Source of the DNA: an uncultured virus (IMG/VR IMGVR_UViG_3300035668_000001)
Lineage: Duplodnaviria; Heunggongvirae; Uroviricota; Caudoviricetes
Direction: 5' to 3' (one strand)
IMG/VR virus record: IMGVR_UViG_3300035668_000001
DNA length: 64,000 nt
The notes under the pieces are model-generated. The model ran no database searches and was not told the DNA's origin. It saw only the letters and a list, made by a program, of their open reading frames with translations. Made by a program: the position numbers and the translations under genes. Shown one piece after another: positions 1 through 29,211 of the stretch (positions are counted from its first letter, which is position 1; every line of letters begins with the position of its first letter).

Positions 1-34
1 GGGCACAGCAGGAAAGCAGAGAGGGGGCTGCTGG

Positions 35-454: not shown

Positions 455-477
455 CCCCTTTGTCCCAGGAGCACACT

Positions 478-2064: not shown

Positions 2065-2495
2065 GAGCTGATCGACCCGTGCAACGTCTCCTCGTACCCT
2101 TCACCGCCGCCGTCTGCTTCGCCGGTATCGCGACGATCCTGTACATCCTGCGGCCCGTCGGTAACCAGCCACTCATGTACATCCTCGTGTTCACGACCAT
2201 CATCACGTGTGTCGCCGTCAACGCCGCCGACCCGGGGGAGGAACCCCCGGGTCAGACGCCGCCGGGCGACCCTTTCGACCCGTCGAAGTGAACGACGACC
2301 CGCGCCAGCGCGCCCCCCGACGTGACACCCAGCCGCGGCCCGCGCGGCCGCGTGAGCACCGTCAGCCGCCCGCGGCGCCGGCGGAGGAACGGCGCCCCCG
2401 CGGACCCAAGTTCCAGCCGAAACCGGCGCCGTGATCGGCCACCCTGCCCCAGCTCGGGAGCGACCCCGGGCCAGACCCGAAGGACTGATGCACCC

Positions 2496-3449: not shown

Positions 3450-3688
3450 CCGGTAAACCTAGGCAGGAGCCCGGCCCCGGCGAGTACTTGCGGATCACGG
3501 TCTCCATCGGACCGGCCTCCCGGCCGAGGCTTGCCCGGCTCATGGCCGTGCTGCACCTCACGCAGTCCGGGGCGATCTGCCGGGCACTCGCCGTCTGCGC
3601 CCTCATCGTCCAGCGTGACGGGGAAGGGTACGAGGTGGTGTTCCGGCACCGCGAGACGGGACAAGAGAGGGTTGTCGAGCTGCTGTGA
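3446..3688 (+). CDS. small hypothetical protein (possible ribbon-helix-helix type)
   Basis: GTGA overlap with the previous stop; 80 aa. Confidence 0.5.
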   Translation: MTGKPRQEPGPGEYLRITVSIGPASRPRLARLMAVLHLTQSGAICRALAVCALIVQRDGEGYEVVFRHRETGQERVVELL

Positions 3689-3770
3689 CGGCACACAAGG
3701 GTGGTCTCCTCCCCGGCGGCCGCCCGGTAGCGCACACTAGGCGGCGTACACCCCGGTCAAAGGAAAGGAC

Positions 3771-5480
3771 GTGATGGTGCGGACCCGGCCGGCGCCACCT
3801 GACACCGGTCTGGTGATCGCCGACGACTGCACCCTGCCCCTGGACACGGCCACCGACACGTTCGCGATCCTGGCGAAGCGGGGCCGCGGGAAGACGTACA
3901 CCGCGATGGTCCTCGCCGAGGAGCTTGTCGACGCCGGGGTGCCCGTGTGTGTCCTCGACCCGACCGGCGTGTGGTGGGGCCTGCGGTCCTCCGCGGACGG
4001 CACCGCGCCCGGCCTTCCGGTGGTCATCTTCGGCGGTGAGCACGCCGACGTGCCGTTGGACGAGACCGCCGGCGCGCTGATCGCCGAGGTCGTCATCGAG
4101 GGCCGGTTCCCCGCCGTCCTCGACCTGTCACTGCTGTCGAAGTCCGCGACCCGCCGGTTCGCCACCGAGTTCCTCGAGACGCTGTACCGGCGCAACCGGA
4201 ACGCGCTGCACGTCCTCATCGACGAGGCCGACATGTTCGCCCCACAGCGCGCGTACCAGGGTGTCGAGCGGCTCCTCGGCGCGATGGAGGACGTGGTGCG
4301 CCGCGGCCGGGCCCGTGGCCTCGGCGTCACCTTGATTTCGCAGCGGTCGGCCGCGCTCAACAAGACCGTCCTGTCGCAGCTCGACTCCCTGTTCGTCCTC
4401 GGCATGCGCGCCCCGAACGACATCGCCGCGATCGACGACTGGGTGAGCCAGCATGACGTCGAGGACGCCGCCCCCGCCGTGAAGGCGTCGCTGCCGTCCT
4501 TGCCTGTCGGCACCGGCTGGCTGTGGGCGCCAGAGCGGGACCTGATGCAGCGGGTGCGGGTGCGCCGCCGGCGGACGTTCGACTCTTCGGCGACACCGAA
4601 GGTGGGGGAGTCGCGGATCGAGCCGCAGAGGTGGGCGACCGTCGACGTCGCGGCCCTCGGGGAACGCGTCGCCGCGCTCACCGCCCGCGCCGAGGACGAC
4701 GACCCGAAGCGGCTCCGCGCCCGTATCCGCGAGTTGGAGAAGCAGGTCGCGAAAACCGCGGCGGCTACCCGCGGCCGGACGGTGGAAGTGGAGGTGCCGG
4801 TCCTGGCGGACGGCCAGGTCGCGGAACTCGCCCGCATGGTCGACGACTTGCGTACCGCGGCCGGTGCGATCACCGAGGCGGCCCGGGGGATCTCCGACGC
4901 CCTCAGCCGCACCCGGCCTTCCCCGCCCCGCCGCGAGACGGCCGCCACTCCCGCACCCGCCGCCCCGCTGCGCCTCGTGGACCCCCCGGCCCTTCCCGGC
5001 GGGGACGCGGCACTCGGCCGGGCGGAGCGGCGCATCCTCGCCGTCCTCGCGCAGCACGGCCGCCGCTCCACCGTGCAGGTCGCGATGCTCACCGGCTACA
5101 GCCACAAGTCGGGGGGCTTCCGCAACGCCCTGTCGTCGCTGCGCACCGCCGGGTACATCACCCGCGACGGCAACGGCGAGGTGGACGTGACCGGCGCCGG
5201 CTTCGCCGCCCTCGGCGGCGACTACGAGATGCTCCCGTCCGGCCCCGCGCTCCTCCACTGGTGGTACGGGCAGCTCGGGAAGGCCGAACGGCTCATCCTC
5301 GCGGAAGTCGTCGCCGCCTGGCCCGACCCGCTCAGCGTCGAGGACATCGCCCGACGCACCGGCTACTCGGCGACGTCGGGCGGGTTCCGCAACGCGATGT
5401 CCCGGCTGCGGACACTCCAACTCGCCCAAGGAACCCGGGAGCTCCGTGCCGCGGATGTCCTCGGGGACGCCCGGGCCTGA
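3771..5480 (+). CDS. HerA/FtsK-superfamily P-loop ATPase with two C-terminal winged-helix-like repeats
   Basis: Walker A AKRGRGKT, Walker B VLIDEAD, LISQR motif; repeats GYSHKSGGFRNALSSLR and GYSATSGGFRNAMSRLR; RBS AAGGA. Confidence 0.85.
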   Translation: MMVRTRPAPPDTGLVIADDCTLPLDTATDTFAILAKRGRGKTYTAMVLAEELVDAGVPVCVLDPTGVWWGLRSSADGTAPGLPVVIFGGEHADVPLDETAGALIAEVVIEGRFPAVLDLSLLSKSATRRFATEFLETLYRRNRNALHVLIDEADMFAPQRAYQGVERLLGAMEDVVRRGRARGLGVTLISQRSAALNKTVLSQLDSLFVLGMRAPNDIAAIDDWVSQHDVEDAAPAVKASLPSLPVGTGWLWAPERDLMQRVRVRRRRTFDSSATPKVGESRIEPQRWATVDVAALGERVAALTARAEDDDPKRLRARIRELEKQVAKTAAATRGRTVEVEVPVLADGQVAELARMVDDLRTAAGAITEAARGISDALSRTRPSPPRRETAATPAPAAPLRLVDPPALPGGDAALGRAERRILAVLAQHGRRSTVQVAMLTGYSHKSGGFRNALSSLRTAGYITRDGNGEVDVTGAGFAALGGDYEMLPSGPALLHWWYGQLGKAERLILAEVVAAWPDPLSVEDIARRTGYSATSGGFRNAMSRLRTLQLAQGTRELRAADVLGDARA

Positions 5481-5486
5481 CCGCCT

Positions 5487-6269
5487 CTACCCGGCCGCGG
5501 CGAGGCGCTCGAGCGCGGCCACGTCGGGCAGCAACGCGGGGGCGCCGCGGGGAACCAAAGTCATCACGTCGCCGCGGCGGGTGAAGACCAGGTCTTGGAA
5601 CGTGGCCCACGACATCCACGCCCGACCCGACAGCCCCCAGCCGGGCCCCCACGAGTTGGTGAACCACACCCGCTTCCGCTCCACGTCGAGCTCGTCGAAG
5701 CACGTCTCGTGCCCGCCGCGCACGTACGCGTCCGCCGCGATCTTCACCTCACCCGATGCGGCCGGGGTGTCGAACGACGAGAACCAGCTCTGCCCGACGA
5801 TGAACGGCCGCTGCATCAACGCGGCCAACGCCGAGGTGTAGTCGAGGACCGCCTGGTACCCGGAGATCCAGTTGTACTGCTGCGCGGCCTTCGACACCGC
5901 GAGCCCGGAGGATCCGGTGTCGTCCGGGGGCCACGAGCCGGCCCACACGTCGAGGGTGGTGGCGACGCTGTAGAAGGACCGGGCCAGGGACTCGTCGAAC
6001 GTCTGCGTCGTCGCGAACGTCGCCCGGAACGGGTCCGCCGACAAGGCGTGGACGAGCGCGTTGCCGGTGCACGAGCCGGTGGTGCCTTGATTGAGTGCCG
6101 CGATCAGCCGCTTGTGGCGGACCGACTTGAGGACGACCACGGTGGCGGATACGCGATACGCGTACGCCTTCGACAAGGGGTCGTGTTCGAGGTGCCGACC
6201 GAGGGGCTTGCCCTCGACCGCCACTTCCGGGATGCGGTTGAACTCGATGTTCCGGCGCATGGGCGACAT
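5487..6269 (-). CDS. papain-like (C1 family) cysteine peptidase
   Basis: NQGTTGSCTGNA (Gln, Cys), GGHE (His), FTNSWG (Asn); start at 6269 or 6260. Confidence 0.85.
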   Translation of the reverse strand: MSPMRRNIEFNRIPEVAVEGKPLGRHLEHDPLSKAYAYRVSATVVVLKSVRHKRLIAALNQGTTGSCTGNALVHALSADPFRATFATTQTFDESLARSFYSVATTLDVWAGSWPPDDTGSSGLAVSKAAQQYNWISGYQAVLDYTSALAALMQRPFIVGQSWFSSFDTPAASGEVKIAADAYVRGGHETCFDELDVERKRVWFTNSWGPGWGLSGRAWMSWATFQDLVFTRRGDVMTLVPRGAPALLPDVAALERLAAAG

Positions 6270-6330
6270 GCCCCGCACCGTGAACGACGGGGGGTAGTTG
6301 TGTCGCGACCCGGCGGGTAGCGAACGTGAG

Positions 6331-6373
6331 TCAACTGCGTGTATATTCGGGCGCGTGGAGGGAGCGACCCCCC
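6331..6373 (+). promoter_or_regulatory. putative phage promoter (-10 TATATT) plus GGGAGCGACCCC leader motif
   Basis: Variant of the motif recurring at 13087, 27705, 35649, 36512 and 54313. Confidence 0.55.
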
Positions 6374-6428
6374 GCGAGACTCGAGGAGCCCGACGTGGTT
6401 CTCTACGGCTTGAACAAGGTTGGGTGAC

Positions 6429-7112
6429 ATGACTGTCAAGGCATCGCCCAACCCCCAGTACACTCCGCCGGAACCGACGGGCGGAGTGCCCGTCCCTGAC
6501 GCTGCGGAGGTAGTACAGGTGGCGACGACGTCCTTGGCGAAGATCGCCGAACTCGAGGACCCCCGCGCGCGTGCGGAACAAGCCGCTGCCCTCGTGACGA
6601 CGTACAAGCCGCAGGTGAAGGAACTCCGTGGCCGGCGTGACGCCTACATCTACATGATGCTGCACCAGTGCGGAGAGCGTCGCGGCGACGGGGAAGCCGT
6701 CGTGAAGGCACTGTCCTGCCACCGCAACCTGTGGAACCAGATCCGGCTCCGCCGCGGCCCCGTCCTCGACGGCCGCATGACCCGCACCGAATCCGTTCCC
6801 GGCCGCACGTCGAAGACCAACCCGCGGGAGCGCACCAAGGTCGTCACACTGCCCGTCGTCCCGAACTTGGGGAAGGACCCGCAGCCGTATCTCGACGCGG
6901 CGGCGGAGGCGCACCGCGGATCCGAGGCGTTGCAGAAGAAGATCAACGAGGCGTTGGACGTCCGCGACTCTGCCGTCGACGAACTGCTCGACGACTCGTC
7001 CATGAACGGCGAAGAGATCGCCGCCCTGATCGGCGTCACCGCGCAGCGGATCTCCGACATCAAGAGGACCCGGGACGCGCGCCTCGCCGAGGAAGCGCTC
7101 GAAACCGGGTGA
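6429..7112 (+). CDS. putative DNA-binding protein with C-terminal helix-turn-helix
   Basis: MNGEEIAALIGVTAQRISDI fits an HTH pattern. Confidence 0.7.
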   Translation: MTVKASPNPQYTPPEPTGGVPVPDAAEVVQVATTSLAKIAELEDPRARAEQAAALVTTYKPQVKELRGRRDAYIYMMLHQCGERRGDGEAVVKALSCHRNLWNQIRLRRGPVLDGRMTRTESVPGRTSKTNPRERTKVVTLPVVPNLGKDPQPYLDAAAEAHRGSEALQKKINEALDVRDSAVDELLDDSSMNGEEIAALIGVTAQRISDIKRTRDARLAEEALETG

Positions 7113-7123
7113 ACACCACCGCT

Positions 7124-7174
7124 AGACGGCTTCGGCCCCCGACAGGAATCCCCTGCCGGGGGCCGAAGCCGTCT
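7124..7174 (+). terminator. long inverted repeat, probable terminator
   Basis: Perfect 18-bp arms AGACGGCTTCGGCCCCCG / CGGGGGCCGAAGCCGTCT just after a stop codon. Confidence 0.7.
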
Positions 7175-7250
7175 CCGACCTGAAAGACATCCCTCCGGGG
7201 CCGTGAGCAGCCGAGCGACCGGCAGCTCGCCCCATCGCAGGAGACATCTC

Positions 7251-7781
7251 GTGGACGACGACCTCTGTACCACCCGCGGGCACCGGCCCGTGTTGCTCCG
7301 CCGGACACCGTGGCGGACTCGCCGCTTCCTCCGTTGCGTCGTGTGCGACGAACGGGTGCCCGAACCCGACGACCTGCCGGCGTGGCCCACCGACCGGCGC
7401 GGCACCCGCGCAGTGCTGCGCCTGGTCGCCTTCGGCGCGGGCACCGCCTGCCTGGGGGGCTTCGCCAGTTACCTCCGCGACCCGGCCGAGCAGAGCGCCA
7501 TGTGGGTCGGCCTGGCCCTCCTGTACACGGCCGCTCTCGCCGCCGCCGCCCTCACTCTGCTGGGACCGTCGAAGACGCCCGCCCGCCCGCCCCCCGCCCA
7601 CCGGAGGCGCACCGTGGACGACCAGTACAACGTCGTCGAGATCCACCCCATCGGCCCCCCCGTGTACGTCACCGGGCCGTATTCCAAAGAGGAAGCCGAG
7701 TGCCGCGTCGCGGAGTACAACACCCGGCCCAAGTGGGGATTCGAGTACGGCATCGCACCGGCCGAACAGGAAGCGGACTGA
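7251..7781 (+). CDS. hypothetical membrane protein
   Basis: AGGAG RBS; two hydrophobic segments. Confidence 0.55.
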   Translation: MDDDLCTTRGHRPVLLRRTPWRTRRFLRCVVCDERVPEPDDLPAWPTDRRGTRAVLRLVAFGAGTACLGGFASYLRDPAEQSAMWVGLALLYTAALAAAALTLLGPSKTPARPPPAHRRRTVDDQYNVVEIHPIGPPVYVTGPYSKEEAECRVAEYNTRPKWGFEYGIAPAEQEAD

Positions 7782-7983
7782 CAATGGTTATCACTTGCCC
7801 CCGCGCCAAGACCGACATGACCCCGTGCGTGGCCCGCGACGGGAAGGCGGCGTGCACCGGCGACGGGAAGTGCGTCGGCTGCGCCCACCATCCCGCCGAC
7901 CTCCTGACCGACCTCGTCGCCCGCTACGTCGAGGTCACCACCCTGATGAGGTCCGGGGCGAAGTCCGGGCGGAAAGGAGTCGG

Positions 7984-8337
7984 ATGACCGCCTGGTTCGG
8001 GTCGTCCTGGGGGGCGCCCGTCAACGAAGGCCCCCGCGTCCCCGTCCCGGTCGGCATGTCGTGCTCGTGGTGCGCCGAGGCGATCGAGACCGGTGACTCC
8101 GGCGTCGTCATGCCCCACGTCGAGGAGCCGAAGCCGGGCGTGTTCGTCACCCGCATCCGGCCGCTGCACTGCAACTGCCACCTGCGGTCCGTCATCGGCC
8201 CCTTGGTGCACGTCGAAGAACAGTGCGGCTGCTACACCAGCCACTTCACCGACAACGACCCGCCGGGCATGACCCGCCGGCAGGCCGCGGACGCCGCCGT
8301 AGACGCTTTCTACGCCAAGTACGGGCACGCCTTGTGA
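7984..8337 (+). CDS. Cys/His-containing hypothetical protein
   Basis: AAGGAG RBS, ATGA overlap, CSWC...HCNC. Confidence 0.65.
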   Translation: MTAWFGSSWGAPVNEGPRVPVPVGMSCSWCAEAIETGDSGVVMPHVEEPKPGVFVTRIRPLHCNCHLRSVIGPLVHVEEQCGCYTSHFTDNDPPGMTRRQAADAAVDAFYAKYGHAL

Positions 8338-8353
8338 CCGCCGGGAGGCCGTG

Positions 8354-8527
8354 ATGTGGTGGTGGAAAGAACCGATCCTCGTGATGAACCCCGAGGAGTA
8401 CCGGGAGTACGTGCGCCGCAGGCGTCTCATCTACACCTGGGCCGCGGCGGTCGTCGCCGTCGTCCTACTCCTCTGCTGCTGCGGTGTCCCACTCCTGTCC
8501 GTCCTCTTCCAGCCGGTGGCGCCGTGA
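8354..8527 (+). CDS. small membrane protein (not in ORF track)
   Basis: GGAGG RBS; MWWWKEPILVMNPEEYREYVRRRRLIYTWAAAVVAVVLLLCCC... Confidence 0.55.
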   Translation: MWWWKEPILVMNPEEYREYVRRRRLIYTWAAAVVAVVLLLCCCGVPLLSVLFQPVAP

Positions 8528-9183
8528 CCGACGCCGCACCCGACCCGACCGCCGCGACGCAGACCGCCGCGACGCTGGTCGCCGCCCGCGCCCGCAAGGG
8601 CCTCTGCGTCTGCTGCGGTGTCGACCCCGCGAGGTGGGGCGCCCCGGCCGTAGGTATCGGCGAAGGGGTCCTCCTGTGCGCCGACTGTGTCGACCGCTGC
8701 CACGACGACGCGGACCACGTCGCCTGGCTACTCGAAGCCGCGATATCCGGGGGGGCGCCGTGATGCTCGGCTGCCTCCTCCACGGTGCCGGCGGGGGCGA
8801 AGACGACCCCGCAAGCCATCCAGAGAATCCGCCCGACCTAGGCGGCGCCCCCTACCGATGGTGCGGCTTCTGCGGGGCGAAACAGTACTTGCCCAAGAAG
8901 ATCCCGGCGCTGCGGTTCCCCGAGGTCGACCGGTGCCCGCGGTGCCGCGAGCGCGACTGGCGCGACGAGATCGACGAGATCACCGCGCCGGACTACCGCG
9001 AGGACAGGGAGGGCCGATGATCGGCACCCACGTCATCGGTTTCACCGCTGCCACCGTCGCCGCGCTCGCCGCCCTGGTCGTCATCGCCATCGGACGGCAC
9101 CCCTGGACCGGCAGCATCCTCCTCGCGTTCTCGGTGGTCGCCCTCCTCGCGCACGGCACGTCCCTCCTCGCCGGCAGCCCGAC

Positions 9184-9447
9184 GTGACCCTGGAACGCTG
9201 CGAGACGTCGTGGGCGGCCGCGCACGGCCAGTGCGCCGTGTGGCTCAACGCCGACACCCTCTGCGACCAGCCCCGCGGCCACTACCCGCAGACGAACCAC
9301 CGCGGCCACGACCCGTCCGGGCTCACCGCCCGGTGGGTCGACTACATCGAGCAGGACGGGCACGCCGTCGAGGTCGACCGCGGCGGCGGCTGGCCCAAGG
9401 AGGGCGACCCTGAGATGACGACCCCCGGACCGAAAGGCACGCCATGA
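9184..9447 (+). CDS. hypothetical protein
   Basis: Coupled ORF in a chain of small genes. Confidence 0.55.
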   Translation: MTLERCETSWAAAHGQCAVWLNADTLCDQPRGHYPQTNHRGHDPSGLTARWVDYIEQDGHAVEVDRGGGWPKEGDPEMTTPGPKGTP

Positions 9448-9887
9448 CCGACACGGTGACCGCCGCGATGGTCGCGTTTGTGACCTCCCGCCTCGACGAC
9501 CGCGAGGCTGCGGCCCGCGCCTTCGCCGACGACGGGTGGGTCGTAGCCATCTACGGCACACCCGGCGCCGACGAAGGCGACCCCTCCGTGGCTGTGCGCC
9601 TCATCGGCGGACCCAAGCCGTACGCCCGTATCTTCCGGGGGGCCGCCCACCTTGTCGACTGGGGCCACGCCGTCCACAACTCCGCGATCACGCTCTGGTC
9701 CCTCCAACAGGAACTACGCGAGATCAAGGCCCAGCGGTTCATCATCCGGTCCCTCGACTACGCCGAGCCGGGGAGCGACCACTGGGTGGCCGTCATGGCG
9801 CAGATCGGCCACCTGGCCGAGGCCCACGACGACCACCTCGAATACCACCCGGAGTGGTCGACGACCCCGGGCGGTGAGCCCCGGTGA
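9444..9887 (+). CDS. DUF6221-like actinobacterial phage protein
   Basis: FVTSRLDDREAAA ... LREIKAQRFII ... LAEAHDDHLEYHPEW. Confidence 0.65.
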   Translation: MTDTVTAAMVAFVTSRLDDREAAARAFADDGWVVAIYGTPGADEGDPSVAVRLIGGPKPYARIFRGAAHLVDWGHAVHNSAITLWSLQQELREIKAQRFIIRSLDYAEPGSDHWVAVMAQIGHLAEAHDDHLEYHPEWSTTPGGEPR

Positions 9888-10050
9888 TCCGTCGTTGCAT
9901 CGCCAACGCCCTCCGCCGCGCCGCCGCGCGCCTTGACGGGGAGGTCCCCGCCGTCACCACGATGCCGGGCGGCGGCTACGAGATCAGCCTCCACGGCCTC
10001 CCGCTCGCGCGGGTCAGCCCCGGGCAGATCCAGACCACCCGGGACACCAC

Positions 10051-10512
10051 ATGAAGGCACTGACGGTCCAGCAGCCCTACGCCTGGGCCATCGCCTTCGG
10101 GGGGAAGCCGGTCGAGAACCGCCGCCAGCGGTGGAAGTACCGAGGCCCCCTCGCGATCCACGCCGGCGCCCGCTGGGCCTCCTACGCCGCCGACGACATG
10201 CGGATCGTCCTGGCCGTCGCCAACGACCCCGACCCCCGGCACCTGTACACCTTCGGCGCGATCCTGGCTGTCGTCGACCTGGTCGACGTCCACGCCGACG
10301 CCGCCTGCTGCGACCCGTGGGGCGAACACGCCGCGGCCACCCCCGGCGACGGATCGCACACCGTCGTCCACCTCGTCCTGCGGGACGTGCGCCCACTGCC
10401 CGAACCCGTTCCCGCCAGCGGGCGCCTCGGGCTGTGGGACCTGCCCGGCGACGTCGAGGAATCGGTACGGCGACAACTCACCCCCGACCGGATAGGACGG
10501 ACAGCGCCATGA
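10051..10512 (+). CDS. ASCH domain protein
   Basis: MKALTVQQPYAWAIAFGGKPVENR...YRGPLAIHAG...GRLGLW. Confidence 0.9.
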   Translation: MKALTVQQPYAWAIAFGGKPVENRRQRWKYRGPLAIHAGARWASYAADDMRIVLAVANDPDPRHLYTFGAILAVVDLVDVHADAACCDPWGEHAAATPGDGSHTVVHLVLRDVRPLPEPVPASGRLGLWDLPGDVEESVRRQLTPDRIGRTAP

Positions 10513-10904
10513 GCATGTACGAAATGGTGTTCGGCACCGACGGCCGCGGCCGCGCAGAAGTCCTGCTGCCACTCCTCGGCAACCCCGACGTCGGCCGGTT
10601 CCGCGACTGCTGGATAGAGAAGGCACCCGACGGCGACCCGGTCATCGCCGTCTACACCCGCAACGGCGGCGGGAACCGGCCGGACTACGCCGACGTCATC
10701 ACCGCGCTCCAACAGCACGAGCTGTACCTGCGGGACACCGACGACGACTTCGATTCGACGTACGCCACGTTCTACTTCCGCACCCCGGCCAAGTACCGCG
10801 ACATGTTTCGGCAAGTCGCCGGCGACCCCGTGGACATGGACGAACGGTGGGCCGTCGCCATCGAGGCGATCGGCGGTGCGATCGACGGCACATCGGCGCC
10901 TTGA
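10509..10904 (+). CDS. conserved phage hypothetical protein
   Basis: ATGA overlap; RFRDCW...VYTRNGGGNR...DDDFDSTYATFYFR. Confidence 0.7.
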   Translation: MSMYEMVFGTDGRGRAEVLLPLLGNPDVGRFRDCWIEKAPDGDPVIAVYTRNGGGNRPDYADVITALQQHELYLRDTDDDFDSTYATFYFRTPAKYRDMFRQVAGDPVDMDERWAVAIEAIGGAIDGTSAP

Positions 10905-10944
10905 GCCCCCTCGACGGCCAAGCCCAAGACGACAGCGACACGCC

Positions 10945-11220
10945 ATGAGCCACCACCGCCGCGAACACTCTGACGTCTCCGTCATAGTCCCCGCCGGCGC
11001 CACCGGCCACCAGGCCCTCGTCGGCAAACAGCTCGCCATGCTGTCGGAGGGCTACTGCCCGTACGGCTGTGGGCGGCTCGACGTCCGCGACCCGCCCTGG
11101 ACGTACTGCTCGTGTTGCGACCGGTACCTGCGCACCTACACGGACGGCCGCGGGCCCGCCTTCGAGACGGTCGTCGGATGGTACTTCCGGGCCGAACCCG
11201 TCCCCGACGGCTGGTGGTGA
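10945..11220 (+). CDS. small Zn-ribbon protein, paralogue 1 of 4
   Basis: LSEGYCPYGCGRLDVRDPPWTYCSCC. Confidence 0.7.
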   Translation: MSHHRREHSDVSVIVPAGATGHQALVGKQLAMLSEGYCPYGCGRLDVRDPPWTYCSCCDRYLRTYTDGRGPAFETVVGWYFRAEPVPDGWW

Positions 11221-11226
11221 CCCCCG

Positions 11227-11466
11227 ATGAACTTGTGGGCCAGTATCGCCGCGGCGAGAGCCACCGGCAGGGCCGCCATATCCGAAGGCTTCTGCCCGGC
11301 CTGCCGCGGCCGCCTGCAACCATCCGACCCGCCCTGGCTGTACTGCCCCCCGTGCAGCCTGTCCTGGCATGTGACGGACGACGACGACCTACTGCTGGGG
11401 ATCGGCAAGAACCCGCCGCTGCCACCGCCGCGGCCGAGAAAGCCCCAGGCCAACAACGGAAGGTGA
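11227..11466 (+). CDS. small Zn-ribbon protein, paralogue 2 of 4
   Basis: ISEGFCPACRGRLQPSDPPWLYCPPC. Confidence 0.7.
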   Translation: MNLWASIAAARATGRAAISEGFCPACRGRLQPSDPPWLYCPPCSLSWHVTDDDDLLLGIGKNPPLPPPRPRKPQANNGR

Positions 11467-11471
11467 CGGAG

Positions 11472-11711
11472 ATGCCTCGACGCGATGATGCGGAAGCCGC
11501 GGCGACCGCCGCCTTGGCGAGCCACGTCCTGGCGCAGGTCTCCCTCGCGGAGGCCGCCCTGTCCGAGGGCTTCTGCCCGAAGTGCCACGGACGCCTGCGA
11601 CCCACCGAGCTGCACTGGCTGTACTGCCCCCCATGCGACCTGTCCTGGCTGGTGACGCGCGAGGGCACCCTGCTCCAGGCAGTCGGCGAGTACCCGCCGC
11701 CACCGCCGTGA
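11472..11711 (+). CDS. small Zn-ribbon protein, paralogue 3 of 4
   Basis: LSEGFCPKCHGRLRPTELHWLYCPPC. Confidence 0.7.
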   Translation: MPRRDDAEAAATAALASHVLAQVSLAEAALSEGFCPKCHGRLRPTELHWLYCPPCDLSWLVTREGTLLQAVGEYPPPPP

Positions 11712-11744
11712 GCGCCCCCGGGGGAACGACGGAAGGTGACATCC

Positions 11745-11975
11745 ATGGCCATGTGGGCCCGCGCCTCCTTCGCGAACGTCGCCCGCGCTAAGGCGTCCCT
11801 GTCCGAAGGCTTCTGTCCCGACTGTCACCACCGCCTGCAATCCACCGATCCGCCCTGGCTGTACTGCTCGTACGGCGAGATGTCCTGGCATGTGGCGGAC
11901 GGCCAGATACTGATGGCGGCCGGCCAGCACCCGCCGCCCCCACCGCCGCTGCGAGGGTCCCCATGGGAGACGTAG
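11745..11975 (+). CDS. small Zn-ribbon protein, paralogue 4 of 4
   Basis: LSEGFCPDCHHRLQSTDPPWLYCSYG. Confidence 0.7.
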   Translation: MAMWARASFANVARAKASLSEGFCPDCHHRLQSTDPPWLYCSYGEMSWHVADGQILMAAGQHPPPPPPLRGSPWET

Positions 11976-12031
11976 GACAGACCTATGTCTCCACAAGGCC
12001 GCCCCGGCGCGGTGTCACAACCAGACGGGTT

Positions 12032-12080: not shown

Positions 12081-13067
12081 GTGGCTGAGAACACCGATAT
12101 CGAGCTGTCGACCACCTACGGGGTGGCCCTGCCGGGCGAGCTGGACACCCTCGAAGAGTACGAGGCCGCGTCGATCGCTGAGAACACCATCGCCGCGTAC
12201 ACGCGGGACTGGAACGCCTGGGTGGCCTGGTGTGCCACCCGGGGCACCAGCCCGCGGCCGGCCGACACGACGATGCTCGGCGTCTACCTCACGCAGAAGG
12301 CGCGCGCCGGGGTGCCTCCGACGTCCCTCGCCCGGTACCTCGCCGGGATCGGCCACTTCCACGAGGAGGCCGGGTACGACCGGCCCGCACACATCCCCGG
12401 GCTGCGGCGGATCATGCGCGGTATCCGGCACAAGGCGCGGGATGCCGGTATCCGGCCCGTGAAGGCGCGGGCACTGGACACCGACGCGATCAAGGCGCTC
12501 GTGTCCGACTTGCCAGCGGGCCGCGCCGGGGTCCGTGACCGGGCGGTCATCCTCGTCGGCTACGCCCTCGGGCTGCGCGTCTCCGAGCTCGTAGCGCTCG
12601 AGGCCCGTGACGTGAGCCCCGGGTACGGCGACGGCCTGGACGTGTACCTCGCCAGCGGCAAGACCGACCAGGAGGGCAAGGGCCGCACTCTCGCCTTGGC
12701 CCGGGGTACCCGCGTCGACACGTGCCCGGTCACCGCGCTACAGCACTGGGTCGCCGCCGCCGGCATCACCGAGGGCCCGATCTTCCGCCGCGTCTACAAG
12801 GGCACCGCGCAGACGGTCGGCGTCCGGCCGTTGGACGTGAAGTCGGTGCGGCTGATCTTGCAGCGCGCCGCCGATCGCGCCGGGGTGTCCTTGGAACGGC
12901 TGTCCCCGCACTCTCTGCGCGGCGGCCACATCACGACCGCGTACCGCAAGGGCACGTCCGAACCGAAGATGGCCGAGACGACGGGGCACCGTTCGATCCT
13001 CGTCATGCGCGGCTACAACGACTCCGAGCGGTGGGAGAACCCGTCGTCCGCGAACCTCGGCCTGTAG
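12081..13067 (+). CDS. Cre-like tyrosine recombinase
   Basis: Catalytic R (GLRVSE), K (GKTDQEG), HSLR, TGHRS, Y (MRGY); N-terminal 'NTIAAYTRDW' SAM-like helix. Confidence 0.92.
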   Translation: MAENTDIELSTTYGVALPGELDTLEEYEAASIAENTIAAYTRDWNAWVAWCATRGTSPRPADTTMLGVYLTQKARAGVPPTSLARYLAGIGHFHEEAGYDRPAHIPGLRRIMRGIRHKARDAGIRPVKARALDTDAIKALVSDLPAGRAGVRDRAVILVGYALGLRVSELVALEARDVSPGYGDGLDVYLASGKTDQEGKGRTLALARGTRVDTCPVTALQHWVAAAGITEGPIFRRVYKGTAQTVGVRPLDVKSVRLILQRAADRAGVSLERLSPHSLRGGHITTAYRKGTSEPKMAETTGHRSILVMRGYNDSERWENPSSANLGL

Positions 13068-13086
13068 CGGAACCTAGGCAAGCCCA

Positions 13087-13103
13087 TAAACCCCGTGTAC
13101 GAT
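13087..13103 (+). promoter_or_regulatory. putative phage promoter TAAACCCCGTG-TACGAT
   Basis: Matches the recurring motif; lies upstream of the operon leading into the TIGR-like locus. Confidence 0.65.
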
Positions 13104-13134
13104 CGGTCTTCTCGACAGCGACCGAGGAGTACCC

Positions 13135-13482
13135 GTGAGTGAAGCCCGAGGACGGACCCGGAGTATGGCCGCCGGGAAACCCCACCTCACCTGCGCCTGT
13201 GGCCGGGACGTGTGGAGCAACATCGGTATCGCCTCCCACCGGAAATCGTGTGAGGCGAGCTTGGAGCGGGACGGGTGGCCGATCGACGCGGGCATGGCGA
13301 AGGCGATCCGGGAGGAGTACCCGCGCAACGCCGCCCCCACCATCTTGTACGTGTCGCGTCAGCTCGGCCGCGTCTACCTTGAACGTCGCCGCGGCGGTGA
13401 CAACGCCGAGATGCCTTGGCGGGAGTACCGGGATCTCGTGTGGCAGCTCGCGGCCGAAGCACAGTCGCAGCCGGTGGCCTAG
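13135..13482 (+). CDS. hypothetical protein (CxC...HxxxC)
   Basis: GAGGAG RBS; 115 aa. Confidence 0.65.
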   Translation: MSEARGRTRSMAAGKPHLTCACGRDVWSNIGIASHRKSCEASLERDGWPIDAGMAKAIREEYPRNAAPTILYVSRQLGRVYLERRRGGDNAEMPWREYRDLVWQLAAEAQSQPVA

Positions 13483-13743
13483 GTGACCGCCTCCAAGGTG
13501 ACGTGCCCCCACTGCCGGAGTGCCGACCTGAACGTCATCGAGGACTGGTCCGGGTTCTCCATGTCGTTCCCGTCGGAGTCGTACACCGTCGGCCCCGACG
13601 GCGTGACGATCACCGGCGAGGGCTGGCTGCACGAGGGCGAACCGACCGGCCGGTACGTCTGGCGTTGCAACGACTGCGGCCACTGCTGGCGGATCCGGCG
13701 CGCGGTTGTCGTCGACAACTACGGCGAGGCGAGGCACCTGTGA
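13483..13743 (+). CDS. Zn-ribbon hypothetical protein
   Basis: CPHC...CNDC. Confidence 0.65.
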   Translation: MTASKVTCPHCRSADLNVIEDWSGFSMSFPSESYTVGPDGVTITGEGWLHEGEPTGRYVWRCNDCGHCWRIRRAVVVDNYGEARHL

Positions 13744-13994
13744 CCGATCCGACGATGCCCCACGTGACGGCCCCCGCCGTCCCGGTCATGGCGGGGATGC
13801 GCGACGCAAGCGTCCACAACCACCCGGGCCGGGCCGCCGTCTACCACGTCGTCAAGTACCGGGGCGACGTCCCCCACCCGGCGTGCAACACCTGGTCGCA
13901 AGTGGTCGTCGAGACGACGGTGCGGCCGGCTGAACGCGTCGAGCCCGCTTTGCGGTGTCAGGGTCACGGGTGCCGTAGCCGGTGGCCGCAGTGA
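13740..13994 (+). CDS. hypothetical protein
   Basis: GTGA overlap with the previous gene. Confidence 0.6.
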   Translation: MTDPTMPHVTAPAVPVMAGMRDASVHNHPGRAAVYHVVKYRGDVPHPACNTWSQVVVETTVRPAERVEPALRCQGHGCRSRWPQ

Positions 13995-14218
13995 CCGCCG
14001 TGTCCGGTCCCTCGAGCTCCCTCGACGGCCAGGGGTTACGCGTCACCCATCATGAGGCCGCCGTCGAGGGGCCATTTCACTCCCAGCCGACCATCGGTCC
14101 GGCGACGCCCATGGCGGACACGTCGGCTGGGCTTTACTCCCCGGCGGCCACATCCAGCGCGGCGCCCAATACGCTGCCGCCGCCGGGGCCCCACCCACAC
14201 CGTAGGGATCTGAGATGA
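13991..14218 (+). CDS. possible small ORF carrying three TIGR-like stem-loop units
   Basis: GTGA overlap with the upstream stop and ATGA overlap with the 14215 start; low-complexity product. Confidence 0.4.
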   Translation: MTAVSGPSSSLDGQGLRVTHHEAAVEGPFHSQPTIGPATPMADTSAGLYSPAATSSAAPNTLPPPGPHPHRRDLR

Positions 14219-14460
14219 CGGAGCAGAAGTCCGCGAAGGTGGCCGGGATCCGCCGGTACGGTGCCCGGCGGCGCGGCGCCCCCACCGACCCCCTCGACGG
14301 CCACGGCCTCGCCGTTGCCCAAGACAGCAGCGCCGTCGAGGGCACAGACTCCCCGGCGGCCACCACAGATCCGACACCCACGGCCGCCGCGCCGCCGGGG
14401 CCCACAGACACCTCGGCGGCCAACGAAGATCCGGCGCCCACAAGCAACGCGCTGCCGAGG
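14019..14460 (+). ncRNA. TIGR-like stem-loop guide array, 5' block (6 units)
   Basis: stem-CCA-N9-CG-N4-CCA-N9-CG-stem with first CCA at 14029, 14091, 14148, 14301, 14360 and 14420. Confidence 0.8.
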
Positions 14461-15807
14461 CCCAGCATCGCCGACCCCCTCCTGGCCTTGCTCGCCGACG
14501 CGGTCGACGACTTGGAGCGGACGAGGATCGCGAACGAGAACCGGGTCCGGCAGCTCACCCGCGCCGGGGAGGACAGTGACGGGGCGGAGCGCGGCTTCGG
14601 GCTCACCTTGGATCAGCCGCAGGTCGCGTCCCTCGCCCGGGTCGTCGCCGGGTTGGCGGACCTGGAAGCGGAGGCGGTGCTGAACCTGCGGCGCCGTCTG
14701 CGGCAGCACCCGCTGGGGGCGTGGATACAGGGGCAGGTGGGGATCGGGGAGAAGCAAGGTGCCCGCCTGCTGGCCGCGATCGGCGACCCGTACTGGAACA
14801 CCCTGTACGGGCGGCCGCGGACCGTGTCAGAGTTGTGGGCGTTCTGCGGCCTCCACGTTCTCCCCGCCGGCCAGCCACCACCCGTGGCCCATCTTCCTGC
14901 CGCCGGTGGGGACCAGACCGATCCCGGCCATAACGTCGTCGACGCCCAGTCAGCCCGCGCCGGGATCGCCCACGAGCCCCCCGCCGGCCAATGCGCAGAC
15001 GATCCCCATGGCGATCTCGTCGGCGGGGCACAGACCGACCCCGGCCAGGATGTCCACGACACCCAGGATGCGCGCGCCGGGGTCGCCCACGAGCCCCCCG
15101 CTGGCCATCACGGTACCGATGCCCATACAAGGTCCGCCGGTGGGGACCAGACCGACCTCGGCCATCCTCCCAGCGGAACCCATTCCAAGCCCGCCGGGGT
15201 CGCCCACGTACTCCCCGCCGGCCAAGCAGCCCTCGATTCCCATGTGTCGGGCGCCGGCGGGGCCCAGAACGGTCCCGGCCATAGCGTCGCCGACACCCAC
15301 TCACCTCGCGCCGGGGTCGACCACGAACTCCCCGTCGGCCATCACGCAGCCGATGCCCCTGGCAGGTACGCCGGCGGGGCCCAGACCGACCCCGGCCATA
15401 ACGTCGCCGACACCCAGTCAGCTCGCGCCGGGGTCGCACCATCACGGCAGCGTGGCCAGCGCACCAACTGGTCCACCGCCGCGAAGATGCGCGTCTACCT
15501 GATCGCCGAGACGTGCATCAAGTTCGACGGCAAACCCGACAAGAACGATCAGCCCCGTCCGCTGTCCCCGTACCGGGCCGTGTACGACGAAGGGCGGGCC
15601 AAGTACGCCGGGGCGGTCCACCCGGCCGTATGCCGCCGGTGCGGCCCGTCCGGGCATCCCGCGGCCGTGGGGTCGCCGTTGTCGCCTGGGCACCAGCATG
15701 CGCGGGGGCTGCGTCTGGTGATGAAGGCGATCCTCCGGGACTTGTGGATCGAGGCCCGGGGGCTCCACGGCGACCACGCGGCGACCACGCGGCGACCATG
15801 CCCATGA
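14215..15807 (+). CDS. IS110-Tnp/Nop-domain protein lacking a nuclease domain (TasA-like), with in-frame repeat insertion
   Basis: Coiled coil DDLERTRIANENR; HhH-like GIGEKQGARLLAAIGD; ELWAFCGL; RQRGQRTNWS; SPYRAVYD; HARGLRLVMKAILRDLW; no DEDD/RuvC N-terminus. Confidence 0.82.
   Translation: MTEQKSAKVAGIRRYGARRRGAPTDPLDGHGLAVAQDSSAVEGTDSPAATTDPTPTAAAPPGPTDTSAANEDPAPTSNALPRPSIADPLLALLADAVDDLERTRIANENRVRQLTRAGEDSDGAERGFGLTLDQPQVASLARVVAGLADLEAEAVLNLRRRLRQHPLGAWIQGQVGIGEKQGARLLAAIGDPYWNTLYGRPRTVSELWAFCGLHVLPAGQPPPVAHLPAAGGDQTDPGHNVVDAQSARAGIAHEPPAGQCADDPHGDLVGGAQTDPGQDVHDTQDARAGVAHEPPAGHHGTDAHTRSAGGDQTDLGHPPSGTHSKPAGVAHVLPAGQAALDSHVSGAGGAQNGPGHSVADTHSPRAGVDHELPVGHHAADAPGRYAGGAQTDPGHNVADTQSARAGVAPSRQRGQRTNWSTAAKMRVYLIAETCIKFDGKPDKNDQPRPLSPYRAVYDEGRAKYAGAVHPAVCRRCGPSGHPAAVGSPLSPGHQHARGLRLVMKAILRDLWIEARGLHGDHAATTRRPCP
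14861..15435 (+). ncRNA. TIGR-like stem-loop guide array, intragenic block (10 units, 57/60-bp alternating period)
   Basis: First CCA at 14871, 14928, 14988, 15045, 15105, 15162, 15222, 15279, 15339 and 15396; variable 9-nt spacers, invariant CCA/CG (one CCC variant), complementary stems. Confidence 0.85.
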
Positions 15808-15823
15808 CGAGGAGGCCCGCCGC

Positions 15824-16189
15824 ATGACCCCGAACCTGCCACTCATCGACGACGTCATGCACCACATCGACACCCACCCCGAAGAGTGGGACCAAACGCT
15901 TTGGTTTTGCGATACCACTGCCTGCTTCGCCGGGCACACCGCCCTCATCTCCGGACTACATGTGAACCGGAGGCTCAGCACCGTATTCGCGCCCGAGGAC
16001 CGCAAGTGGCGCAGGGCGGCAAGCGTGGCCGAGAAGCTCCTCGGCTTGGACTCTTGTACGGCCGACCGCCTGTTCTGCGCCGGGAACACCCTCGACGACC
16101 TGCACCAGGTCGTGAAGGAACTCCACGGCGCGCCCCACCAACCCCTCTCGTGGGAGCCGAAGCCGTTCGACGACGAGGAGTCGGCCTGA
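15824..16189 (+). CDS. conserved actinophage hypothetical protein
   Basis: GAGGAGG RBS; WDQTLWFCDTTACFAGH. Confidence 0.7.
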   Translation: MTPNLPLIDDVMHHIDTHPEEWDQTLWFCDTTACFAGHTALISGLHVNRRLSTVFAPEDRKWRRAASVAEKLLGLDSCTADRLFCAGNTLDDLHQVVKELHGAPHQPLSWEPKPFDDEESA

Positions 16190-16782
16190 TGCCTGGGGCG
16201 TGGACGTGGTTCCCGGCGGCCTTCTACGCCCTGTGCGGGGTCGGCGTGGCCCTCGCCGTCGCGCACGTTGTGCTCGCCTGGCGGTTTCTGCACGACGCCG
16301 CCAGGGCCGTCGCGCCGTGACCATCCACGTCGACCTGTCCAGCAGTGACCCGAAGGTCGAGTCCCTGCTGCGGCAGGTCGAGGCCCTGCCGATGGGCAGC
16401 TCGGCGCGGTCCGAATGCGAGGGCGCCCTGTACTTGGCGCTAGCCCGGGTGTGCTGGCGGGATGCCGACCGGTGCCGCGAGCTCGAGCGGCACCGCGCCG
16501 CACGCGACGCGAGGAGGGGCGAGGCGTGAGCCCCCGAGATCCGCAGTCCGAGATTCACGACATCGACATGGGCACCCCAGCCATGGGTACCCCAGTTCCG
16601 GTCGGCGGCTGGTACTGCGGTGTGCTCCGTGATGCCGTCGGCGTGGTGGTGTACCGCACCGAGCCGCGCCTGCTATCCGCCGGTGACACCCTCGCCGGCG
16701 GGCCCTTCCGCTGGGTCGGATCGTCATACTCCGGTGATATGCCAGACCCCTCCGCGCACCAACCTCCGGAAGGAACCGCCCC

Positions 16783-19011: not shown

Positions 19012-19556
19012 GACGCCCTCCTGGGGTGTGGGTTCCTGACGGGGGTCGCTCCCCACAGCAGGAGAATTCACGGTAGTCCCCCGGTCAGCCTCTCGAAAAG
19101 GACAAGACGCGGGACGTAACCGGTCCGCGGCGCGCATGGTGCCCGGCATGGGTACCGTCACGTCTCTCTCCGACGTCCGTGAGCGCCGCGCCGCCGCGAT
19201 CGCCTCGGTCGCGCCGATGCACCCCGCCTTGCGGTACTTGGTCGGCGGCGACGGCTCGGTCGCGCACCGGCGCACACCCATGGGCCGCACCGTGTGCGGC
19301 ACACCCGGGGACCTCTACGTGGCCCGCGTCGAGACGCCCTTGTGTGACGTCTGTTACGAGGGACGCGCCGGGTGACCCCCGAGATCCGTCCCGCTGCCGC
19401 GACCGTAGACGTCGTGTGGATCTGCACGGGGCCGTGCGGCCGCCCGATCCTCGTCCGGCTCCCGTTCCTGTACATCGACGACGTCACGACCGAGGCGATG
19501 TACGACTGGTGGGAACTACAGCGGGCAGGGGTCATGCATCTGCGGGACTGCGGCCG

Positions 19557-21317
19557 GTGAGCCCCGTCCGGGCGGCGTCCCGGACCCCGCCCCCGGGCCG
19601 TGACGCCCTCTCCCCCGGCGCGAAGCGGATGCTCGCGGACCTCGCCGCGTTACCCCCGACCGTCCGGCGGGACATCTACCGGAACATGGGGGAACGGGAC
19701 CTGTCCGTTCTCCTCGCCGTGTCCGAGGTCCAACTCGGCACGCCGTACGGGCTGTGGGTCGACGACCCGGCCGGGTTCATCCTCGACGTCATCGGCGACG
19801 CCTTGTGGTCCATGCCGACGCGGATCGCGGACACGGTCACCACCGCGCGGAAAGTCGCGGTCCCGTCGTGCTACGGGTCCTCGAAGACGTGGACTAGCGC
19901 GAGATTGGCGGTCTGGCATTCGTTCGTGCACCCGCCCGGGACCGCCCTGACAGTCACCCTCGCGCCGAAGTGGCGGCAGGTGGTGCGCCTCATCTGGCCC
20001 GAGATCAGGCGGGCCCACAAAAAGGCCGGGCTGCCTGGGCACGCCGACATGGCGCAGTTGAAGATCACCGACCGGACCGGGCTGGACCACGTCGTCGCGT
20101 ACGGGCTCGCGGCCGAACCCCGCGACGAGTCGGCCGTGCAGGGCATCCACGCCGCCGGCGGCGTGCTCCTGATCGTCGAGGAGGCGGGGGGTATCCACGC
20201 CACGATCGGGCGAAGCATCCTCGGCGCGTTGACCGGCGCCGACTCCCGCATGCTGGCGATCGGGAACCCGCCGACGTCGGACGAGGGCGGCTGGTTCGAG
20301 GAGTTGTGCGCCGCTGACGACGTCGTCACCATCCCCATCACCGCACAGTCGACGCCGAACCTGTCTGGGGAACGGCCGGTCCGGTGCCACACGTGCCCGC
20401 CGACGGCGCCGGTGCACGCCTTGTCCAACCACTTGATCGACCAGCAGTGGGTGGATGACGCGATCCGGGACAACGGCATCGACTCGCCGTACTGCCAGGC
20501 CAAGATTTTCGCCCGGTTCCCGAAGGGCGGCGGGTCGCGGATCATCCCGTCCCAGTGGCTCGACGGGGCACTGGACGTGCAGGCCACCGAGCCGGACGCG
20601 GAGCCGGGGCAGTCGGTGCGGCTGTGCGACCTCGGGCTGCCGGACGAGACGGACCCGTGGGTGGTGGCGTACGGGGCGTGGATCCGGCTCGGCGTCGACG
20701 TCGCGTCCGACGGCGGCGACGAGTTCGTGGTGGCCCGCCAGGTTGGGGACCTGGGGACGATCGAGCACTACTCGGCGGGGGCGACGAACGCCGATGCGAT
20801 CAACGTCGCCGGGAAGGTGCTGGTGCAGATCCGGCGCGCGGAGGCCCTCCGTGCCGCGATCGGCTCGGAGGCGCAGATCCGGGTGAAAGTCGACGTGATC
20901 GGGCTCGGGTGGGGCGTCGTCGGGGCCCTCACCGCGTGGGGCAAAGAGGGGGTCCACGACGCGGCCATCGTAGCGGTGAACGTCGCGGAAGCTACGGACC
21001 GTGAGCCCGATGGGACGTCGATGATTCCGGACCGCAAGCGGGACGAGCTGTGGCTGACGGGGCGCACGTTGGTGCAGCCGGATCCGCGGACCGCAGAACC
21101 ACAGGTGCGGCTGCGGGTTGACAAGAAGACTGCGTCCCAGTTGCGCGGCCCGAAGTACGGAACGACTATGGCCGGGGGCCGGATCAAAGTCGAGTCGAAG
21201 AAGTCGATGCGGGAGCGGGGCCTGTCGTCGCCGGACCGGGGGGAGGCTTGGCTACTGTGCGTATACGAGCCTGCGCCGCCGCGTGACGCCAAGAAGAAGG
21301 CTCGGCTAGTCGCTTGA
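19557..21317 (+). CDS. terL: terminase large subunit
   Basis: Walker A-like SCYGSSKT, Walker B LLIVEEAGG, IGNP coupling motif, nuclease LGVDVA and SPDRGEA; precedes the portal gene. Confidence 0.9.
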   Translation: MSPVRAASRTPPPGRDALSPGAKRMLADLAALPPTVRRDIYRNMGERDLSVLLAVSEVQLGTPYGLWVDDPAGFILDVIGDALWSMPTRIADTVTTARKVAVPSCYGSSKTWTSARLAVWHSFVHPPGTALTVTLAPKWRQVVRLIWPEIRRAHKKAGLPGHADMAQLKITDRTGLDHVVAYGLAAEPRDESAVQGIHAAGGVLLIVEEAGGIHATIGRSILGALTGADSRMLAIGNPPTSDEGGWFEELCAADDVVTIPITAQSTPNLSGERPVRCHTCPPTAPVHALSNHLIDQQWVDDAIRDNGIDSPYCQAKIFARFPKGGGSRIIPSQWLDGALDVQATEPDAEPGQSVRLCDLGLPDETDPWVVAYGAWIRLGVDVASDGGDEFVVARQVGDLGTIEHYSAGATNADAINVAGKVLVQIRRAEALRAAIGSEAQIRVKVDVIGLGWGVVGALTAWGKEGVHDAAIVAVNVAEATDREPDGTSMIPDRKRDELWLTGRTLVQPDPRTAEPQVRLRVDKKTASQLRGPKYGTTMAGGRIKVESKKSMRERGLSSPDRGEAWLLCVYEPAPPRDAKKKARLVA

Positions 21318-27683: not shown

Positions 27684-27704
27684 CGTCGGACTCCTCCATC
27701 AAGA

Positions 27705-27749
27705 GGCGGGGTCGCTCCCGCCCACACCACTATTGTACATGGGGTTTAG
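27705..27749 (-). promoter_or_regulatory. putative phage promoter (-10 TACAAT) plus leader motif
   Basis: Minus strand: CTAAACCCCATG-TACAAT-AGTGGTGTGGGCGGGAGCGACCCCGCC. Confidence 0.75.
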
Positions 27750-27804
27750 AGGCGTGGGAAGTGGGCCGCGACACTACCGACTGCGATGGATCACCGTGCA
27801 TCGC

Positions 27805-29202: not shown

Positions 29203-29211
29203 CCCGACGGC

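Follow-up and report, generated by a model that had tools for sequence, protein, structure and literature searches.

First described in 2025 (Faure et al. 2025, PMC12045711), the TIGR-Tas systems of phages bind DNA under RNA guidance and combine a Tas protein with a TIGR (tandem interspaced guide RNA) array. The dual-repeat TIGR array is built from two alternating conserved repeats of 8–12 nt, the edge and the loop repeat; TaTasR uses CCA as box C and UG as box D (Faure et al. 2025, PMC12045711). For the stem-loop arrays, of which 2,559 are reported by Xu et al. (2026; preprint 10.64898/2026.09.09.750476), the same preprint describes a loop of mostly 9 nt, a CUU motif at the stem base, positions within tas at the 5' end, at the 3' end or internally with the reading frame unbroken, a wedge loop carrying two guides in BlTasA, disorder of the segments encoded by the tigRNAs, and RNA-guided transcriptional repression by TasA. 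Guides upstream of and inside tas are a published architecture (Faure et al. 2025, PMC12045711; Xu et al. 2026, 10.64898/2026.09.09.750476). Our comparisons with these reports draw on parts of each of them.

The locus analyzed here lies in a 64-kb stretch of DNA, referred to below as the window. It is a fresh example of stem-loop TIGR-TasA, of the kind published in 2025–2026, and ordinary as an instance: 16 hairpins very probably form the stem-loop TIGR array of a nuclease-free TasA encoded at 14215–15807. With the published stem-loop TIGR-TasA systems (PlTasA, BlTasA, and MbTasA; Faure et al. 2025, Xu et al. 2026, and the preprint of Guan et al. 2026) it shares a nuclease-free Nop-domain protein with a coiled coil, units that precede tas as well as units within it, both at its 5' end and in the wedge loop, that leave the frame intact, and the format of a 9-nt loop with 9-nt spacers. 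It differs from BlTasA in the number of wedge-loop units (ten, against two), and from the published stem-loop TasA systems in having CG instead of UG as box D, a stem base that is mostly CU followed by C instead of CUU, and three units in a separate small open reading frame (ORF). Compared with the dual-repeat TIGR-TasR (TaTasR, PDB 9MTY), the locus has a homologous Nop domain, a CCA box C, a YG box D, 9-nt spacers, and a 9-nt loop repeat, but no conserved edge repeat, as the stems vary and pair, no RuvC, and units of about 50 nt instead of 36.

More distant guide systems show partial likeness. IS110/IS621 with its bridge RNA has a related RNA-binding domain (TM 0.55–0.57) and loops with two guide segments each, whereas the window protein has no DEDD/RuvC, there is no sign of a mobile element, and many single-loop guides are found in place of one two-loop RNA. 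Box C/D sRNPs (Nop5) likewise have a Nop domain on a coiled-coil dimer and guides bracketed by box C and box D, a likeness raised in the discussion of Faure et al. (PMC12045711); no K-turn, L7Ae, or fibrillarin partner is evident here, however, and the characterized Tas proteins target DNA. CRISPR arrays resemble the locus in their tandem units, variable guide segments, and adjoining effector gene, but the window array lacks both a conserved repeat (near-identical and 25–36 nt long in CRISPR) and cas genes, its guides are split into 9 + 9 nt, and its units may be coding.

Format and Covariation of the Hairpin Units

The 16 hairpin units, all on the + strand, lie between 14019 and 15436, six of them within 14019–14460. 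Each is about 50 nt long and consists of a variable self-complementary stem of 9–10 bp enclosing a 32-nt core, CCA-N9-CG-N3-CCCA-N9-CG; the order within the loop is box C (CCA), the 9-nt spacer A, box D (CG), a 4-nt linker, box C (CCA), the 9-nt spacer B, and box D (CG). The format CCA-N9-CG-N4-CCA-N9-CG is present in 16 of 16 window units, including one CCC variant (unit 15). The initial annotation of this DNA had placed six units with their stems and 9-nt segments in the upstream part and counted 16 units in total: all six were found at those positions, the count proved correct, and the upstream core starts (14029, 14091, 14148, 14301, 14360, and 14420) reproduce the spacings it gave, 62, 57, 153, 59, and 60. 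The remaining ten core starts run from 14871 to 15396. The candidate tigRNA units are listed below with their scores in the covariance model R1, which is described further on.

14019..14070, + strand: unit 1, 10-bp stem; box C CCA; spacer A GGGGTTACG; 9-nt loop; spacer B TCATGAGGC; box D CG; 46.4 bits
14082..14131, + strand: unit 2, spacers TCGGTCCGG / TGGCGGACA; 37.8 bits
14139..14188, + strand: unit 3, spacers CATCCAGCG / ATACGCTGC; 49.3 bits
14291..14342, + strand: unit 4, in the disordered N-terminus of tasA; spacers CGGCCTCGC / AGACAGCAG; 50.2 bits
14351..14400, + strand: unit 5, spacers CCACAGATC / CGGCCGCCG; 37.3 bits
14411..14460, + strand: unit 6, spacers ACGAAGATC / CAAGCAACG; one G-U (G-T) stem pair; 42.1 bits
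14862..14911, + strand: unit 7, first of the ten wedge-loop units; 34.6 bits
14919..14968, + strand: unit 8; 47.4 bits
14979..15028, + strand: unit 9; 35.1 bits
15036..15085, + strand: unit 10; 49.0 bits
15096..15145, + strand: unit 11; 46.2 bits
15153..15202, + strand: unit 12; 36.1 bits
15213..15262, + strand: unit 13; 52.2 bits
15270..15319, + strand: unit 14; 31.8 bits
15330..15379, + strand: unit 15, second box C is CCC instead of CCA; 35.1 bits
15387..15436, + strand: unit 16, end of the wedge-loop array; 49.4 bits

With at most one mismatch allowed, the core pattern matches at 33 places in the window, whereas 100 shuffles averaged 7.35 matches and never exceeded 14. Twenty-three of the 33 matches fall inside 14029–15427, all on the + strand: 15 are exact, one has CCCC for CCCA, and seven are off register by 18 nt. 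Outside the array, the window holds a single exact core match, at 25523. The seven off-register matches (14853–15352) each lie 18 nt upstream of a true core; the linker and left stem of some units mimic a third CCA-N9-CG-N4 module, so that the array has a sub-period of 18 nt. Near-identical direct repeats are absent, the sequences between the cores differing among units; conservation is seen in the loop part, and the edge position is occupied by the variable stems. At the stem base, CU immediately precedes the stem in eight of the 16 window units and is followed by C, where the published motif is CUU; in a set of 226 units, CTT occurs within −6 to +3 of the stem base in 29% and CT in 58%.

The initial annotation had further claimed that the stems carry compensatory changes, which is borne out, and had called for a covariance model. 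In a gapless alignment of the 16 window units, 92.6% of the stem cells are paired, and seven of the 11 pairs have changed on both sides. The covariation score of 0.520 compares with 0.156 in shuffles and was reached by none of 500 shuffles; once the stem partner is slid, it does not exceed 0.20 (maximum 0.195). For 120 units of other contigs the paired fraction of stem cells is 94.1%, and across 266 distinct units the ten stem pairs have a mutual information of 0.58–1.55 bits. The 120 units of other contigs served to train the covariance model R1, to which the window contributed no unit. With default filters, it recovered ten of the 16 window units at E values of 2e-4 or less and nothing else in the 64 kb below an E value of 0.046. 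With the filters off, all 16 units were found on the + strand of the interval 13800–15900, at 31.8–52.2 bits, and the same places on the − strand scored 14.6 bits or less; no unit beyond the 16 was found in this interval. When R1 was run on 21 of 63 related loci, those poor in units by a strict pattern scan, it gave 67 matches at E values of 0.1 or less, all on the + strand, and found units in eight of the ten loci that the strict scan had left blank.

A strand bias is also seen for the core motif without any stem requirement, which occurs 285 times on the + strand of the tas loci and 18 times on the − strand. In these motif matches, stem pairs 1–9 comprise 2,565 cells, 2,229 of them Watson–Crick, 114 G-T, 71 A-C, and 151 other. 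As G-U is only modestly more frequent than A-C, the assignment of the strand of action rests mainly on the motif strand bias and on homology. A search of Rfam with the region 13000–16500 gave no match at an E value of 1 or less, and a consensus scan of 12900–16700 for promoters and terminators returned no promoter and one terminator, at chance level, on the − strand.

The TasA Protein and Its Relatives

The gene in and beside which the units lie is the following.

14215..15807, + strand: tasA, encoding P0001 (530 aa), a nuclease-free Tas protein with coiled coil and Nop domain; phrog_4285, E value 1.6e-88

A Pfam search with P0001 alone identified no family, no nuclease domain, and no DEDD/RuvC. 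With Pfam blank for the single protein, the link to Tas came only through a family profile: the profile of 43 members (A2) matched the PDB entry 9mty, titled as TIGR-TasR with tigRNA and target DNA, at an E value of 6e-29, and TasH chains at 6e-14. A bridge-RNA-like guide of an IS110 remnant, type III toxin–antitoxin RNA repeats, and integron attC sites had been considered as identities of the repeats and were dropped after this match. The AlphaFold (AF2) model of a short homolog (L042; pLDDT 96.3) agrees with the profile result: a fold search with it returned 9mty first (TM 0.71), then TasH (TM 0.73–0.78) and the IS621 recombinase (0.55–0.57), as well as weak matches to Nop5 and Nop56/58. Weak C-terminal matches to the Pfam family Transposase_20 were seen in five of the 43 family members.

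The folded core of P0001 comprises residues ~86–215 (14470–14859) and 406–524 (15430–15786). In its AlphaFold (AF2) model the Nop core has a pLDDT of 94–98 and includes two long helices (88–115 and 135–164), and residues 1–80 and ~215–405 have a pLDDT of 32–61; these low-scoring parts are the segments encoded by the guides, and are predicted to be disordered. Alignment with the relatives shows a conserved core of ~235 aa, to which P0001 adds ~85 residues in front and ~190 inside, both of these being the repeat-bearing parts. HarryOW gp70 (235 aa), a relative from a Mycobacterium phage, is the Nop core alone. In the A2/9mty alignment, the ten-unit insert falls at the position of the TaTasR wedge, G210–K230, as delimited in the methods of Xu et al. 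(2026; 10.64898/2026.09.09.750476). A disordered insert of 190 residues at the part that contacts RNA and DNA might impair the TasA of the window.

The protein bears on a reading in which the repeats are DNA-level cis sites for the adjoining protein, for example an origin of replication or hairpin signals of single-stranded DNA within an initiator gene. The lambda ori lies within gene O, and single-strand origins have hairpins with conserved loop motifs; the repeats here are likewise in and beside one early gene. We nevertheless regard such sites as very unlikely, because the fold of the protein is that of a Tas Nop-domain protein, with relatives that bind RNA in precisely this format, because loops of 32 nt are too big for cruciforms, and because the 9-nt variable segments turn over fast (see below), unlike iterons.

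Relatives of P0001 occur in Mycobacterium and Gordonia phages, where their genes carry the annotations hypothetical, transposase, or DNA-binding. Homologs were found in 90 records of isolated actinobacteriophages (83 Mycobacterium, five Gordonia, one Rhodococcus, and one Arthrobacter), where the labels among the matches listed are "transposase," "helix-turn-helix DNA binding protein," and "hypothetical"; the PHROGs and GenBank label of the family is "transposase." With the identification as TasA, this gene family of public phage records receives a correct name and a probable mechanism. To gauge the association of units with tas, 61 viral contigs encoding a homolog were examined by the strict unit scan. 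Units lie on the strand of the gene in 51 of the 61, and only one unit was found on the opposite strand. Hairpins of the same format occur at the same places in Gordonia phage Spooky and Mycobacterium phage HarryOW. The related contigs, the window, Spooky, and HarryOW together provide the 266 distinct units, in which CCA and CG are conserved at 95–100% and the composition of the N9 segments is near background. The copy number of the units differs among relatives: the window has ten units in the wedge loop, against at most three found by the strict scan in any of the 61 related loci. For six neighboring ORFs, a comparison with the 63 related loci gave no relative at an E value of 1e-3 or less; since the neighbors are not conserved among tas loci, the conserved module is tasA with its hairpins.

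In HarryOW (locus L001, 1975–2330), about five tigRNA-like hairpins lie in the 334-bp unannotated gap between gp71 and gp70, upstream of the TasA homolog gp70, which is labeled "hypothetical protein." Two of them are well formed (R1 scores of 37.4 and 22.6 bits), and CUU is found right at several of the stem bases.

Rickettsia palindromic elements are selfish palindromes that insert in frame into genes, and the units could be viewed as selfish mini-elements of this type with no function for the phage: they are in-frame insertions in protein loops, and their copy number varies among relatives. This is a highly improbable reading, given that the 64-kb window has no copies elsewhere, that the units invariably adjoin or lie within genes of a single family and share the strand of the gene, that the copies are alike in format and not in sequence, and that the adjoining protein is by homology a binder of guide RNA.

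Taking the units as guides of TasA, a course of events can be proposed from characterized relatives. The region would be transcribed rightward along with its neighbors, and the hairpins would be excised near the stem base, as has been shown for relatives (Xu et al. 2026). With its two Nop domains, a TasA dimer would grip both box C/D pairs, an arrangement seen in solved Tas structures and predicted here by homology. Each of the two spacers may then base-pair with a different strand of a target site of ~18 bp, which is thereby unwound, as shown for TasR, TasH, and PlTasA. As TasA lacks a nuclease, the outcome would be binding and blockage, for example repression of transcription, as Xu et al. 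(2026) demonstrated with MbTasA.

Coding Context, Array Growth, and Spacers

All the units of the window lie in open frames, those upstream of tasA in a small ORF of their own.

13991..14218 (GTG at 13991, TGA to 14218), + strand: 75-codon ORF holding units 1–3, with a GC3 of ~0.80–0.83 in frame; probably translated

This ORF overlaps both of its neighbors: its GTG shares bases with the stop codon of the upstream gene (GTGA), and its TGA with the ATG of tasA (ATGA). Units 1–3 are hence not plainly non-coding; no homolog of the ORF was found in the other tas loci searched. The tasA reading frame contains the remaining 13 of the 16 units (units 4–16), of which the disordered N-terminus accounts for three and the wedge loop for ten. 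Within the window the units are read in two frames, one giving G-[H/Q] (units 1, 4, and 7–16) and the other SPAAT..PPG (units 2, 3, 5, and 6). The initial annotation had argued from spacings that are not all multiples of 3 that the motif is conserved at the nucleotide level independently of frame; with two different frames used across the units, this argument holds. The repeat regions also lose the GC3 signature that is usual in the surrounding DNA of 70% GC.

Could the units be a purely protein-level repeat, that is, a disordered His/Gln-rich linker whose palindromic look comes from GC-rich codons (GCC GGC)? All 16 units do lie in open frames, and the period of the wedge loop, 117 nt, equals 39 codons. 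Furthermore, one frame is almost unused: the 177 distinct units within tas frames divide into 115 in one frame, 58 in a second, and four in the third, from which it follows that translation constrains the placement of units; the extra risk of stop codons in the third frame, which we estimate at about twofold, fails to explain this bias fully. A protein repeat would, however, not be expected to keep the same nucleotide format in two frames and outside ORFs, as seen in 75 units outside the tas frame, which are without such a frame restriction, and in the HarryOW units in their unannotated gap. In addition, the two fixed C's of the core are at codon third positions, A/T is favored after CCA across the 266 units, contrary to the codon bias of these genomes, the stems covary, and the peptide regions are predicted to be disordered. 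Taken together, we consider this reading exceedingly improbable.

The statement of the initial annotation that the repeat is an RNA element rather than a protein repeat therefore stands in its first half, being supported by the use of frames, the wobble C's, the covariation, the strand bias, and the homology to Tas. The opposition in it does not stand, as the units would also be translated, 13 of the 16 in the tasA frame and three in the small coupled ORF. The guides would thus be written into coding sequence as disordered peptide, and the ten guides in the wedge loop make this an extreme case of guide RNAs nested in their own effector gene, in which guide maturation and TasA translation must compete for one transcript.

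A higher-order repeat marks the growth of the wedge-loop array by duplication of a block of two units.

14901..15437, + strand: higher-order tandem repeat, 117-nt two-unit block, 4.6 copies, 72% matches

Among the duplicated wedge-loop units, the stems are 0.84–0.96 identical and the spacers 0.29–0.50. The same pattern is seen between loci: in two orthologous arrays (L038 2100–3271 and L054 2180–3232), identity is 97% in the tasA core, 99% in the linkers, and 95% in the stems, but 58% in the spacers (35 of 60 aligned positions), which also have more gaps. As the spacers are far less identical than stems, linkers, and core, the guides turn over much faster than the scaffold, and those of the two arrays appear to have been swapped in place. 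Targets were sought within the genomes concerned. The 16 spacer pairs matched the rest of the window at best in 12–15 of 17–18 positions, no better than mismatched pairs, and two HarryOW guides had no match above chance in the HarryOW genome. Pairing between the two 9-nt segments inside the loop was likewise not found, the minimum free energy of the loop being −4.58, compared with −4.55 with shuffled segments (p 0.75).

The two spacers are nevertheless linked at one position. In 49% of the 266 units, the last base of spacer A is complementary to that of spacer B (core positions 11 and 29); shuffling within loci gives 29%, and none of 5,000 shuffles reached the observed level. This was replicated on 241 new units fetched by the motif alone (37% against 24%; none of 3,000 shuffles). 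In the pooled set of 508 units, 221 pairs are Watson–Crick where 135.7 are expected (z 10), G-U and A-C are as frequent as expected, and purine–purine and pyrimidine–pyrimidine combinations are depleted (154 against 249). Of the 81 cross-spacer position pairs, no other shows a signal, and complementarity is even across coding classes (0.47–0.55) and independent of frame. In the window, the last bases are complementary in nine of the 16 units (1, 3, 4, 5, 6, 9, 12, 14, and 16). We found no mention of this in those parts of the TIGR-Tas literature that we covered, and do not claim it to be unpublished.

The published 8-nt 3' overhang and C-5 rule would place the 3' ends of both spacers together at the center of the target. 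We tentatively suggest, as a possibility well short of probable, that in the TasA lineage with CCA and CG boxes the complementarity of the last bases of spacers A and B is under selection, and that, with the 3' ends of the spacers meeting at the target center on the two-fold axis of the dimer, the signal reflects either a tertiary RNA pair that spans the dyad or a central base pair shared by both spacers. Speculatively, the tertiary RNA pair would pre-organize the guide; equally a matter of speculation, one central base pair would be read by both spacers. Should the shared-base reading be true, the site would be one of 17 bp with a one-base "core," a step toward the overlapping core of IS110 bridge RNAs. 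Array growth and the cooperation of the two spacers are among the questions that the field, in the parts of its literature used here, states as open; the duplication of a two-unit block, the fast turnover of spacers, the use of two of three frames, and the complementarity of the last bases bear on them.

Surrounding Phage DNA

The carrier of the locus is a temperate phage or prophage, probably from a soil metagenome, the only public run listed with this DNA being a metagenome of that kind; its landmarks are as follows.

12081–13067: integrase
19179: terminase
22219: portal
36719: major capsid protein
58929: tape measure protein

A search for tRNAs found none. Matches to the terminase large subunit family are seen in two ORFs, 3771–5477 and 19179–21314, the left one being weak and partial; the DNA to the left of the integrase (1–12000) may belong to the host or to another element.

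A further set of repeats is found in the structural region, where an ORF of 1,340 codons (44844–48863) contains tandem repeats of 60, 120, and 180 nt with 71–80% matches (45570–46009, 47010–47323, and 48255–48475). It has no PHROG match and a weak N-terminal match to Laminin_G_3 (E value 7e-5). R1 matches in it are weak and mostly on the − strand (E values of 0.05–0.7), and the TIGR core motif is absent. This looks like a protein-level repeat of a tail or fiber protein. Among the head genes there are also RNA ligase-like and sigma-factor-like ORFs (27646–29859 and 41700–42656) and, further on, an HNH endonuclease with DNA-binding repeats.
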